DNA of 64,000 bases, from the NCBI RefSeq assembly GCF_050320075.1, contig NZ_CP190018.1, one strand, 5' to 3'. Origin of the DNA: Escherichia coli (GTDB lineage: Bacteria > Pseudomonadota > Gammaproteobacteria > Enterobacterales > Enterobacteriaceae). Numbering within the stretch: position 1 is the stretch's first letter; every line of letters begins with the position of its first letter. A program made the position numbers. Shown here one piece after another: positions 58,601 to 64,000 of this stretch.

Positions 58601-61600
58601 TGCGCGGGGGCGGCTGACAGAAGCGGATGCGCGGCTGGACTACCACCTGTTTTATGAGTACGACGCTGCGGACCGGATCATCCGCTGGTCCGATAACGAC
58701 CAGACGTGGAGCCGTTTCACCTACGATGAACAGGGCCGGTGCGTGAATGTCACCGGGGCGGAGGGCTATTACAACGCCACGCTGGACTATGGTGACGGCT
58801 GCACCACCGTGACGGACGGCAAGGGCATTCACCGTTATTACTATGATCCTGACGGCAATATTCTGCGGGAAGCAGCGCCGGACGGCAGCACCACCATGTA
58901 TGAATGGGATGAATTCCATCACCTGCTGGCCCGTCACTCCCCTGCCGGGCGGGTGGAGAAATTTGAATACAACGCCGCACACGGTCAGTTAAGCCGTTAC
59001 ACGGCGGCAGACGGCGCGGAGTGGCAGTACCGCTATGATGAGCGCGGCCTGCTCAGCAACATCACCGACCCTGCCGGGCAGACGTGGACACAGCAGTGTG
59101 ATGAACGCGGCCTGCCGGTAAGTCTGGTGTCGCCACAGGGCGAAGAGACCCGGCTGGCATACACCGCTCAGGGGCTGCTGTCGGGAATATTCCGCCAGGA
59201 TGAACGGCGTCTGGGCATAGAGTACGACCACCACAACCGGCCGGAAACACTCACCGACGTGATGGGCCGCGAACACCACACCGAATACAGTGGTCACGAC
59301 CTGCCGGTGAAGATGCGCGGCCCCGGCGGTCAGTCAGTGAGGTTGCAGTGGCAGCAGCACCATAAACTGAGCGGCCTTGAGCGCACTGGCACCGGCGCGG
59401 AAGGATTCCGCTACGACCGTCACGGCAACCTGCTGGCGTACACGGACGGTAACGGTGTTGTCTGGACAATGGAGTACGGCCCGTTTGATTTGCCGGTGGC
59501 GCGAACGGACGGTGAAGGCCACCGCTGGCAGTACCGCTACGATAAAGACACGCTGCAACTGACAGAAGTCATCAACCCGCAGGGTGAGTCATATCTTTAT
59601 GTTCTGGATAACTGCGGCCGGGTGACGGAAGAGCGTGACTGGGGCGGCGTGGTCTGGCGTTACCGTTATGATGCCGATGGCCTGTGTACCGCCAGGGTTA
59701 ACGGTCTGGAGGAAACCATCCTCTACAGCCGGGACGCCGCAGGCCGCCTGGCAGAAGTCATCACGCCGGAAGGCAAAACGCAGTATGCGTATGACAAATC
59801 CGGCAGGCTGACGGGTATCTTCAGCCCGGACGGCACATCACAGCGCACCGGCTATGACGAACGCGGGCGGGTGAATGTCACCACTCAGGGCCGACGGGCC
59901 ATTGAATACCACTACCCCGATGAACACACCGTCATCCGCTGTATCCTGCCACCGGAAGATGAACGCGACAGACACCCCGGTGAATCCCTGCTGAAAACCA
60001 CGTACCGCTACAACGCAGCCGGAGAACTGGCAGAGGTCATCCTGCCGGAGGATGAGACGCTGACGTTCAGCCGTGATGAGGCAGGACGTGAAGTGCTCCG
60101 GCACAGTAACCGGGGTTTTGCCTGTGAGCAGGGCTGGAATGCAGCCGGTCAGCTTACCAGCCAGCGCGCCGGACTTTTCCCGGCGGAAGCCACATGGGGC
60201 GGACTGCTCCCCTCACTGGTGCGGGAGTACCGTTACGACAGCGCGGGCAATGTGTCGGCTGTCACCAGCCGGGAAGATTACGGACGGGAAACTCGCCGGG
60301 AGTACCGGCTGGACCGGAACGGCCAGGTCACGGCGGTGACAGCCTCAGGCACCGGGCTGGGCTATGGCGAAGGCGATGAGTCCTATGGCTATGACAGCTG
60401 CGGCTACCTGAAGGCGCAGTCTGCGGGCTGGCACCGGATAAGTGAAGAGACTGACCAGTATGCCGGAGGCCACCGGCTGAAACAGGCCGGAAACACGCAG
60501 TATGACTATGACGCCGCAGGCCGGATGGTCAGCCGCATAAAACACCGTGACGGCTACCGCCCGGAAACAGAGCGGTTCCGGTGGGACAGCCGTGACCAGC
60601 TGACCGGGTATTGCAGCGCACAGGGTGAACAGTGGGAATACCGCCACGACGCCAGCGGCAGACGGACGGAAAAACGCTGCGACCGGAAGAAAATCCGCAT
60701 CACGTACCTGTGGGACGGCGACAGTATTGCGGAAATCCGGGAATACCGCGATGATAAACTGTACAGCGTACGGCACCTGGTGTTTAACGGCTTTGAGCTG
60801 ATAAGCCAGCAGTGCAGCCGGGTACGGCAGCCGCATCCGTCCGTGGCCCCGCAGTGGGTGACGCGGACGAATCATGCGGTGAGCGACCTGACGGGCCGTC
60901 CGCTGATGCTCTTTAACAGTGAAGGTAAAACCGTCTGGCGACCGGGGCAGACCAGCCTGTGGGGGCTGGCACTCAGCCTGCCCGCAGACACCGGCTACCC
61001 GGACCCGCGCGGGGAACTGGACGCGGAAGCCGACCCCGGCCTGCTGTATGCAGGACAGTGGCAGGATGCGGAATCCGGGCTGTGCTATAACCGGTTCCGG
61101 TATTACGAGCCGGAAACAGGGATGTACCTGGTGAGTGATCCGCTGGGGTTGCTGGGGGGTGAGCAGACTTACCGGTATGTGCCGAATCCGTGTGGGTATG
61201 TTGATCCGCTGGGATTAGCATTTTGCCCCAGAATGCAGAAGACATTGCAAAAATTAACTGACAAGGCTGTTGCTGATATTATCGCTAACCCCAGACTCGC
61301 TGAAGATCTGATGTCGGCGGGGAGCTATGCACATTTAAAAAATGGAACTAATTTATATGCAGCCAGTTTTGGTAAGGCTGTTGAACGTAGGGTTGCACAG
61401 TTAGTTAGTGACAATTCCCGATTAAGCAAACTTGTTGAACATACTGGTCAGGCCAAGGGGGCTAATGGACAGTTTATATCGAGCCCTGACTTCACCACTA
61501 AAGGTAAAGGCGTGTTCGACGTTACAACAAATAAAGCACTCCAAGCGCATATAGACAGATATACTAAAGCTGGTGTGTATACTCCCTATAATGATATTGG

Positions 61601-64000
61601 TTACTTGGTATATGATGTCGTATATGGATTATCTTTCTAAAGCAAACTAATGGTAACTAAATATGACAAAAGTTCTTGAGAATGAAGAGTTCAATTCTAT
61701 ACATATAGACGAAGGTGGGGTTTTTAATAGTTTACGCTTTGAAAAATGTCTTTTTCAAAGCTGTAGCATACTTAGCAGAAAACTAAATGATAATAGTGAT
61801 TTACCTCCTCGCTTTGAAAACATTCTCATTAAAGATTGCACTGCTCTTAATTGTGTAAGTGGCCCAGCTTTTTTAAAAGATGTAACTGTTGAGAATTTTA
61901 GGACCGGTGATATTTTTCTTATTTATTCCACTATGTTTCATCATGTAACATTAAAAGGAAAGCTTGGGGCAATAAAAATAAATAAAAAAGATTATGTGCG
62001 TGACTATGATAGCCATCAAAGACATATTGAGATGATGAGAACGAGATTTTATTCTCAGATAGATTGGGCGATGGATATATCACAGGCGAAGTTTTTAAGT
62101 TTCTCCTGCAAAGGTATCCCAGCAAAATTAATTAGACGAGATAGTGAGACTCAATTTGTTGTAACGAGGAAACGTTTCAACTCTATGGATGTACTAAATG
62201 CAGAATTTAAAGGACAATACCCGTTTGTTTATTTACTGCTGGAGCTCTTTTTAGAATCAGATGAAGATGACCAGGTATTAGTTACACCATTAGGCAAAGC
62301 AAAAAAATATTATCAGCCAATTCTCGAAGGATTTAGAGAGTTAAGACGAGCAGGAATACTCGAACCTAACTAAATAAGGGTTATATTCCGCCAGGATGAA
62401 CGGCGTCTGGGCATAGAGTACGACCACCACAACCGGCCGGAAACACTCACCGACGTGATGGGCCGCGAACACCACACCGAATACAGTGGTCACGACCTGC
62501 CGGTGAAGATGCGCGGCCCCGGCGGTCAGTCAGTGCGCTTACAGTGGCAGCAGCACCATAAACTGAGTGGCCTTGAGCGCACTGGCACCGGCGCGGAAGG
62601 ATTCCGCTACGACCGCCACGGCAACCTGCTGGCCTGGACGGACGGTAACGGTGTTGTCTGGACAATGGAATACGGCCCGTTTGATTTGCCGGTGGCGCGA
62701 ACGGACGGTGAAGGCCACCGCTGGCAGTACCGCTACGATAAAGACACGCTGCAACTGACAGAAGTCATTAACCCGCAGGGTGAGTCATATCTTTATGTTC
62801 TGGATAACTGCGGCCGGGTGACGGAAGAGCATGACTGGGGCGGCGTGGTCTGGCGTTACCGCTATGACGCCGATGGCCTGTGTACCGCCAGGGTCAACGG
62901 CCTGGAGGAAACCATCCTCTACAGCCGGGACGCCGCAGGCCGCCTGGCAGAAGTCATCACGCCGGAAGGCAAAACGCAGTATGCCTATGACAAATCCGGC
63001 AGGCTGACGGGTATCTTCAGCCCGGACGGCACATCACAGCGCACCGGCTATGACGAACGCGGGCGGGTGAATGTCACCACTCAGGGCCGACGGGCCATTG
63101 AATACCACTACCCCGACGAACACACCGTCATCCGCTGTATCCTGCCACCGGAAGATGAACGCGACAGACACCCCGGTGAATCCCTGCTGAAAACCACGTA
63201 CCGCTACAACGCCGCCGGAGAACTGACGGAGGTCATTCTGCCGGGGGATGAGACGCTGACGTTCAGCCGTGATGAGGCAGGACGTGAAGTGCTCCGGCAC
63301 AGTAACCGGGGTTTTGCCTGTGAACAGGGCTGGAATGCAGCCGGTCAGCCTGTCAGTCAGCGCGCCGGACTTTTCCCGGCAGAAGCCACATGGGGCGGGC
63401 TGCTCCCCTCACGGGTACGGGAGTACCGTTACGACAGCGCGGGTAATGTGTCAGGCGTCACCAGCCGGGAAGATTACGGACGGGAAACACGGCGGGAATA
63501 CCGGCTGGACCGGAACGGCCAGGTCACGGCGGTGACAGCCTCAGGCACCGGGCTGGGCTATGGCGAAGGCGATGAGTCCTATGGCTATGACAGCTGCGGC
63601 TACCTGAAGGCGCAGTCTGCGGGCTGGCACCGGATAAGTGAAGAGACTGACCAGTATGCCGGAGGCCACCGGCTGAAACAGGCCGGAAACACGCAGTATG
63701 ACTATGACGCCGCAGGCCGGATGGTCAGCCGCATAAAACACCGTGACGGCTACCGCCCGGAAACAGAGCGGTTCCGGTGGGACAGCCGTGACCAGCTGAC
63801 CGGGTATTGCAGCGCACAGGGTGAACAGTGGGAATACCGCCACGACGCCAGCGGCAGACGGACGGAAAAACGCTGCGACCGGAAGAAAATCCGCATCACG
63901 TACCTGTGGGACGGCGAAGTATTGCGGAAATCCGGGAATACCGCGATGATAAACTGTACAGCGTACGGCACCTGGTGTTTAACGGCTTTGAGCTGATAAG

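Follow-up and report, generated by a model that had tools for sequence, protein, structure and literature searches.

The closest described counterpart of the toxin–immunity pair analysed here lies in Stenotrophomonas rhizophila CFBP13503, within its vgrG6 cluster, which has the order hns-vgrG6-tap6-paar-rhs-tse6-tsi6a-tsi6b and includes a poly-immunity array (PMC13340143, June 2026; bioRxiv 10.64898/2026.07.13.738213, July 2026). The toxin, Tse6 (WP_141058143.1), was described without a known domain or biochemistry, and is called a 'nuclease' by default (PMC13340143; bioRxiv 10.64898/2026.07.13.738213). Orthologues of Tse6 are known from Actinomycetes, Planctomycetes, and Proteobacteria, where they follow PAAR, Rhs, HINT, and TPS carriers (PMC13340143; bioRxiv 10.64898/2026.07.13.738213). 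In competition assays, Tse6 is required to overcome the resistance of Actinomycete prey to attack by the S. rhizophila type VI secretion system (T6SS) (bioRxiv 10.64898/2026.07.13.738213). Tsi6a (WP_141058142.1) resembles a pentapeptide-repeat protein (PRP) of Mycobacterium chelonae (bioRxiv 10.64898/2026.07.13.738213; PMC13340143), and AlphaFold3 predicts that Tse6 and Tsi6a bind each other (bioRxiv 10.64898/2026.07.13.738213). The present analysis concerns a stretch of 64,000 nucleotides of the Escherichia coli chromosome (NCBI RefSeq assembly GCF_050320075.1, contig NZ_CP190018.1), hereafter the window. Near its end, the window encodes an Rhs protein with a C-terminal toxin domain (CT), followed by an open reading frame of 236 residues (ORF236):

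61221–61640, plus strand: CT, the C-terminal toxin domain of the Rhs protein, 139 residues and a stop codon, with a predicted divergent restriction-endonuclease-like (REase-like) fold.
61371–61559, plus strand: stretch with the codons of the conserved CT residues G51, K52, E55, R56, P89, D90, D100, T102, T103, H110, and R113.
61663–62373, plus strand: ORF236, the putative cognate immunity gene, 236 residues, with a predicted N-terminal PRP-like right-handed β-helix and a C-terminal α/β domain.

The CT and ORF236 are strictly syntenic. We compared the window with 11 fetched loci (L001–L007 and L009–L012). In every locus with downstream DNA, the gene directly after the CT is matched over its full length by a hidden Markov model (HMM) of the ORF236 family (E 1e-66 to 1e-106). 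The pairing spans Proteobacteria, Planctomycetes, and Chloroflexi. The E. coli pairing loci are the window and L001, and an ORF236 homologue also directly follows the CT in L003 and L004. At L002, where the CT is 33% and the immunity protein 32% identical to those of the window, the pair lies in an integrase-flanked island adjoining a barstar gene. In addition, three loci reached through the CT only, from Schlesneria (Planctomycetes), Bellilinea, and another member of the Chloroflexi, carry an ORF236 homologue. Among 5426 complete E. coli genomes, the CT is present in 158 and ORF236 in 159, always in single copy and on the chromosome, and almost all copies are at least 99% identical. The comparative evidence for a cognate pair is as strong as it gets short of experiment, and the view that the CT and ORF236 form a genuine, horizontally acquired effector–immunity cassette is well supported by these sequence comparisons. 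We considered that ORF236 might be an unrelated AT-rich gene; its synteny with the CT across phyla rules this out.

A second, divergent allele of the cassette is present in enterobacteria (E. coli strain 54214, NZ_CM135150.1; L005–L007). Compared with the window, identity is about 84% for the CT and about 63% for the immunity protein, indicating that the immunity gene has evolved far more rapidly than the toxin. Salmonella enterica has a homologue of ORF236 (P0010, 65% identity), and one STox model of a 2026 Salmonella survey (PMC12994826) may therefore cover the CT. The L002 region (7198–10127, from a metagenome-assembled genome) contains a short CT carrier of 268 residues with a ...DPTGLAP junction, together with the immunity gene and near a barstar-family gene. 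This island suggests a mobile depot of toxins and immunity genes.

The boundary between the Rhs core and the CT is sharp. The Rhs open reading frame (56808–61640) encodes 1610 residues. A second DPLGL motif occupies residues 1466–1470, the core ends with DPLGLA at residue 1471, and F1472 is encoded by the codon at 61221. The G+C content is 0.604 in the Rhs N-terminus and core (0.70 at third codon positions, GC3), 0.410 in the CT (GC3 0.345), and 0.339 in ORF236 (GC3 0.254), and returns to 0.613 from 62383 on. A first-pass annotation of the window had placed the end of the core, the 139-residue tail, and the 236-residue open reading frame at exactly these positions, and had described a sharp fall in G+C content from well over half to roughly one-third. 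The fall is real, and one-third is accurate for ORF236 but not for the CT. The same annotation had proposed a horizontally exchanged toxin–immunity cassette, which is borne out by the modular C-terminal position of the CT, by the adjoining ORF236 homologue in three phyla, and by the E. coli genome counts given above.

The distribution of the CT is as expected of a polymorphic-toxin domain and points to a mobile C-terminal module. When 1.84 billion representative proteins (clusters at 50% identity) were searched with a profile made from the first seven homologues, 263 clusters matched at E ≤ 1e-3, 33 of them at E ≤ 1e-30. In the 150 matches examined of these 263 clusters, the median distance between the end of the domain and the C-terminus is 1 residue, and the N-terminal extension preceding it ranges from none to about 4,400 residues. 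The long carriers are Rhs/YD proteins, and others are PT-HINT proteins. Organism names were taken mainly from cluster listings and the AlphaFold database (AFDB). The sources named include E. coli, Erwinia tracheiphila, Pasteurella testudinis, Stenotrophomonas rhizophila, Methylobacterium, Deltaproteobacteria, Planctomycetota, Chloroflexi (Bellilinea), Acidobacteria, Leptospiraceae, Verrucomicrobia, Amycolatopsis, and Streptomyces. Some AFDB carriers have DUF4157/'eCIS core' N-termini (A0A494X8G1 of Trinickia fusca and A0A0F7VKX3 of Streptomyces leeuwenhoekii). The presence of such N-termini on structural relatives suggests that the module may also be cargo of extracellular contractile injection systems (eCIS).

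Judged by their homologues, the CT and ORF236 are not orphans, although they belong to no library family. Neither the CT alone nor its 38 diverse relatives match Pfam-A, its Tox-REase families included. ORF236 matches nothing in Pfam-A, even at E ≤ 10, and nothing among PDB sequences. NCBIfam, PHROGs, and PADLOC contain no meaningful match to either protein, and PDB sequences contain none to the CT, whether searched with the single sequence or with the profile. The best PDB profile matches are parechovirus VP0 capsid proteins (E 0.01), which align through a chance 'SPDF…DITT' string, and an Rhs C-terminal peptide, 8h8a_B, appears at E 0.66; both were judged to be noise. No mention of accession WP_001550770 was found in the literature searched.

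The pair is assignable by structure and not by sequence profiles. The AlphaFold2 model of the CT has a mean predicted local distance difference test score (pLDDT) of 89.4 and a predicted template modelling score (pTM) of 0.85. In the model, three N-terminal helices are followed by the elements α(46–64)-β(72–74)-β(91–93)-β(97–103)-α(107–115)-β(125–131), which form an αβββαβ core. A Foldseek search of AFDB50 with this model returns members of the family first, followed by proteins annotated as 'Restriction endonuclease', 'PD-(D/E)XK nuclease domain', DUF559, and ERCC1/ERCC4. The predicted fold is probably REase-like, of a divergent PD-(D/E)xK type. The first-pass annotation had found no toxin family to match the tail, and this holds for the five sequence libraries searched. 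The structure search that it had proposed does find REase-like relatives, and its further view that the pair could not be assigned gives way to a REase-like fold for the CT and a PRP-like β-helix for ORF236.

The conserved residues of the CT are consistent with this fold. Among the 38 members, residues G51, A53, E55, D90, F91, T102, T103, H110, and R113 are invariant or nearly so, R56 and P89 are strongly conserved, and position 100 is always Asp or Glu. The resulting signature is E-R…PD…(D/E)xTT…H..R, without a catalytic Lys. Helix position 52 is Lys, Asn, or Arg, so no conserved Lys is found there either. In particular, E55, D90, and D/E100 are each kept in at least 90% of the members. The model places E55 on an α-helix, with D90 opening β2 and D/E100 inside β3. 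These appear to be the canonical metal-ligand positions of PD-(D/E)xK enzymes, their spatial proximity being read from secondary-structure positions only. Because the metal-ligand positions are kept while the Lys position is Thr102, we interpret the CT as a divergent phosphodiesterase with a REase fold, in which the part of the Lys may be played by R56, H110, or R113. The family is mostly basic, with a median isoelectric point (pI) of 9.1.

ORF236 is, on comparative grounds, a real gene. It belongs to a 344-member cluster (90% identity) of E. coli 'hypothetical proteins', and full-length homologues are found down to 26–35% identity. Its predicted model (pLDDT 86.2) consists of a β-solenoid, approximately residues 1–110, and an α/β domain. 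The solenoid is predicted to be a right-handed quadrilateral β-helix similar to those of pentapeptide-repeat proteins. PF13599 matches one of 11 members of the family (the window protein and 10 homologues) at E 3e-4 and five of the 11 at E ≤ 0.1; the window protein itself matches none of the pentapeptide HMMs. Conservation within the family peaks at the block DWALDIS…GIPAKLIRRDPETQVVVTR (residues 134–169), in the C-terminal domain. By bulk values, ORF236 has a net charge of +1 and a pI of 7.6, the β-helix part has a net charge of 0, and the homologues have pI values of 5.0–8.6. As far as bulk charge can tell, ORF236 lacks the acidic, DNA-like character of the gyrase-protecting PRPs. Direct binding to the toxin is the default reading of its action and the most likely one, and mimicry is a low-probability alternative.

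A homologous pair is present in S. rhizophila. WP_448132835.1 (P0208, in the cluster of representative P0024) is a 1551-residue Rhs protein of this species, with a CT that matches the E. coli CT at 61% identity (E 3e-52). The protein encoded downstream, WP_448132836.1 (232 residues), shares 34% identity with ORF236 along its full length (E 7e-49). The locus (L012) encodes a DegQ-like protease, an hns-like gene, a 751-residue VgrG, a 540-residue adaptor, the Rhs protein, the 232-residue protein, and an S9 peptidase, and its flanks, the DegQ-like protease and the S9 peptidase, are as described for the vgrG6 locus. The G+C content dips at the pair, from 0.66 to 0.52 in the CT and 0.45 in the immunity gene. 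Compared with the published masses (PMC13340143, Table 1), VgrG is the same (81.7 kDa), Rhs is 171.3 kDa versus 172.2 kDa, and the immunity protein, at 26.2 kDa, equals Tsi6b. Given this last value, the L012 CT may be of the Tse6 type or of the sister type (C42 of the preprint) that Tsi6b is predicted to block. The locus, the masses, and the published descriptions make it very likely that the E. coli pair belongs to the Tse6/Tsi6 family. A scan of contigs with a CT sub-family alignment gave 3 loci, none of them from Stenotrophomonas, Mycobacteroides, Clavibacter, or Gimesia.

The E. coli CT resembles Tse6 in several respects. It is fused to a PAAR-Rhs protein, it contains no known domain, and its G+C content is lower than that of its surroundings. 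Its relatives are likewise rare and scattered (Planctomycetes, Actinomycetes, δ-, γ-, and α-Proteobacteria, and Verrucomicrobia), and are found behind Rhs, HINT, and other carriers. The immunity protein, like Tsi6, is approximately 25–26 kDa and PRP-resembling. The delivery genes differ: the Stenotrophomonas cluster has a 540-residue Tap adaptor, whereas the E. coli island has a DcrB/Eag-like chaperone and a prePAAR Rhs protein. The Tse6 papers give neither a toxin fold nor a catalytic motif, and the REase-like assignment comes from the present analysis. The first-pass annotation had suggested that the pair might be a new effector–immunity family. Since the homologous pair of the vgrG6 locus was described in 2026 as Tse6 and Tsi6a/b, the family is not strictly undiscovered; very probably it has just entered the literature, without biochemistry.

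We regard the following account as fairly probable. The window protein would be a PAAR-Rhs effector delivered by the T6SS of the source strain. After cleavage at the DPLGL autocleavage motif, the CT would be released from the Rhs shell and act in the cytoplasm of the attacked cell, where it would be toxic as a divergent metal-dependent phosphodiesterase (nuclease) of the PD-(D/E)xK fold, with DNA or RNA as substrate. ORF236 would make the producer and its relatives immune, most likely through direct binding over the conserved active-site face of the toxin. The CT and immunity genes would have entered an E. coli rhs gene as one cassette, by recombination at the boundary between core and CT, and would have pushed the previous rhs end downstream as an orphan. 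The observations behind this account are the arrangement of the genes, the break in composition, the modular distribution of the domain at C-termini, the strict synteny, and the predicted folds.

Several points weigh against it. The position of the catalytic Lys is occupied by T102 (Ser in two of the 38 members), followed by the invariant T103, and, according to Zhang et al. 2012 (PMC3482391), a D-[EQ]xK site is retained by all ten Tox-REase clades. No sequence profile ties the CT to any PD-(D/E)xK family, either in the comparison of the CT and its 38 relatives with Pfam or in the PDB sequence and profile searches. The spatial clustering of the conserved residues is likewise deduced from secondary-structure positions only, and the conserved His110 and Arg113 could instead point to metal-independent cleavage of RNA. 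The link to Tse6 has limits as well: the L012 strain is not CFBP13503 (its VgrG is WP_038691030.1), so that identity with the published Tse6 is inferred from locus and masses. Finally, Tse6 is reported to be inactive on Gram-negative prey, which would be unexpected if the E. coli weapon used a generic nuclease.

With the same cassette and delivery, the CT could be a metal-independent RNase, cleaving tRNA or rRNA on a REase-like scaffold, with His110, Arg113, and Thr102/103 supporting 2',3'-cyclic-phosphate chemistry. REase-fold tRNase toxins exist, for example the CdiA-CT of Burkholderia pseudomallei 1026b, and tRNA-splicing endonuclease uses Tyr, His, and Lys on a related fold. The absence of a catalytic Lys and the near-invariance of H110, R113, T102, and T103 fit such an enzyme, and conservation of the acidic metal-ligand positions fits the metal-dependent nuclease. 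We consider the metal-independent RNase unlikely, but to be taken seriously. It is decidedly unlikely that the pair is mechanistically new on both sides, with a REase-fold toxin that uses Thr-Thr, His, and Arg in place of the catalytic Lys, and a PRP β-helix that either plugs the substrate groove as a nucleic-acid mimic or shields the target in the manner of Qnr and McbG.

It is very unlikely that the CT is something other than a nucleic-acid enzyme, either an ADP-ribosyltransferase (ART) or another enzyme for which the REase-like topology is a coincidence of small α/β folds. A structural neighbour of Tse6 in M. chelonae is annotated as a predicted ADP-ribosyltransferase, and the preprint authors name Tse6 a 'nuclease' by default only (bioRxiv 10.64898/2026.07.13.738213). 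The conserved residues of the CT, however, do not follow the R-S-E or H-Y-E order, and the preprint authors found no ART motif. No ART-fold matches were obtained, and the ART identity was set aside.

Nucleic-acid mimicry and target protection were considered for ORF236 because the PRPs Qnr, MfpA, AlbG, and McbG are DNA mimics that guard gyrase; classic DNA mimicry was set aside, as the protein is not acidic. Although PRPs are known to confer self-immunity to gyrase poisons (PMC7897471, PMC7980463, PMC6722960), it is most improbable that the CT is a topoisomerase- or DNA-directed poison and that ORF236 guards its cellular target by DNA mimicry, as McbG, AlbG, Qnr, and MfpA guard DNA gyrase, since the gyrase-protecting PRPs are described as acidic whereas the ORF236 family is near neutral (pI range as above), since its β-helix comprises only about 110 residues and is joined by a highly conserved α/β domain, and since the one-to-one synteny and the AlphaFold3 Tse6–Tsi6a interaction (bioRxiv 10.64898/2026.07.13.738213) fit direct binding.

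The cassette lies in a T6SS island with the order vgrG, DcrB-like gene, prePAAR/PAAR-Rhs, CT, ORF236, and orphan rhs. In addition to the cassette, it contains the following features:

54398–56299, plus strand: vgrG, T6SS spike and first gene of the island, a 633-residue open reading frame (TIGR03361, E 6e-188; VgrG in RefSeq).
56327–56788, plus strand: DcrB/DUF1795-like open reading frame, 153 residues ('DcrB-related protein' in RefSeq).
56808–61220, plus strand: PAAR-Rhs delivery part, comprising prePAAR, PAAR, YD-repeat shell, and Rhs-associated core to DPLGLA (TIGR01643, TIGR03696, NF033420).
62383–64000, plus strand: orphan rhs core fragment, apparently displaced, running past the end of the window, 97.7% identical to the main rhs gene at 59187–60805.

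The Rhs protein has a prePAAR motif (AARLGDEIQH) at residues 54–63 (56967–56996), followed by hydrophobic segments. The YD-repeat model TIGR01643 matches it at E 8e-70, and the Rhs-associated core model TIGR03696 (NCBIfam) covers residues 1408–1470, to the end of the model, stopping inside ...YVDPLGL-A. The PAAR model NF033420 gives E 5e-11 and 42.5 bits, below its curated cutoff of 124, and a close Rhs homologue in L005 matches the PAAR family PF05488. By its architecture, which includes PAAR, the YD shell, a core with the PxxxxDPxGL cleavage motif, linkage to vgrG and a putative chaperone gene, and a CT with a downstream immunity gene, the window protein qualifies as a T6SS PAAR-Rhs polymorphic toxin effector. 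The counterpart of the DcrB-like gene in L005 and L006 matches PF08786 (DcrB), and, judging from its position, the protein is probably an Eag-type chaperone for the prePAAR Rhs protein.

Positions 61100–62500 of the window are 100% identical to many complete E. coli genomes, such as that of strain 144 (NZ_CP023364, L001), in which the matching region is flanked by cusS and nfrB/nfrA. The annotation there reads VgrG, a DcrB-related protein, an RHS repeat-associated core protein, a hypothetical protein, a partial rhs with a zincin-like toxin, and ISEc1. The homology to the rhs core restarts 10 bp past the ORF236 stop codon. In RefSeq, the orphan is a partial rhs that ends in a zincin-like metallopeptidase toxin domain and is followed by a small open reading frame of its own. 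It looks like a classic displaced former rhs end that marks the downstream recombination boundary of the cassette.

Two further features of the island were observed. At position 57324, the window has a GGGGG run where L001 has GGGG, which explains why the rhs gene of strain 144 is annotated as 'frameshifted'; the copy in the window is intact. The run could be a phase-variable or error-prone homopolymer. Directly upstream of vgrG, positions 54000–54400 are AT-rich (G+C content approximately 0.32), and may be the insertion boundary of the island or a silenced (H-NS-type) promoter region. The homologous S. rhizophila cluster begins with an hns-like gene.

The cassette is carried by approximately 3% of complete E. 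coli genomes (158 of 5426), including isolates from humans, dogs, birds, and water. The REase-like assignment defines the residues to mutate (E1526, D1561, D1571, T1573, T1574, H1581, and R1584 of the Rhs protein), and the PRP-like β-helix assignment of the immunity protein makes the family testable. The analysis also links an E. coli effector to the Stenotrophomonas Tse6/Tsi6 pair, the toxin of which reportedly acts on Gram-positive prey only. Knowledge of polymorphic toxins would be modestly broadened by a REase-fold toxin lacking the Lys, and likewise by a β-helix immunity protein, with Rhs biology as a whole left unchanged. If both the Lys-less chemistry and the PRP immunity were true, the toxin would have an altered chemistry or substrate, and the immunity protein would give polymorphic toxin systems their first immunity mechanism of the PRP type. 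Pentapeptide-repeat immunity proteins go unmentioned in Zhang et al. 2012 (PMC3482391).

Compared with known PD-(D/E)xK toxins, namely Tox-REase-1 to -10 (PMC3482391), PoNe (PMC6688995), the VRR-Nuc toxin TseV (PMC9635880), and the CdiA-CT of EC869, the E. coli CT is likewise a small C-terminal module with a predicted αβββαβ fold. As in these polymorphic toxins, it occurs on Rhs, HINT, and other scaffolds with the immunity gene adjacent, and its conserved acidic residues are predicted on helix α1, at the start of β2, and within β3. It differs from the Tox-REases in its signature, in which Thr replaces the catalytic Lys or Gln. The immunity protein differs too, as ORF236 is unrelated to the partner immunities Imm49, Imm52, Imm54, SUKH, and others listed for the Tox-REases (Zhang et al., PMC3482391). 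Compared with the PRPs MfpA, Qnr, AlbG, and McbG (PF00805/PF13599), ORF236 of the window matches no pentapeptide HMM, and its predicted helix is short, lacks acidic character, and is fused to a conserved C-terminal α/β domain. Unlike the gyrase-protecting PRPs, ORF236 has the genomic role of a polymorphic-toxin immunity gene.

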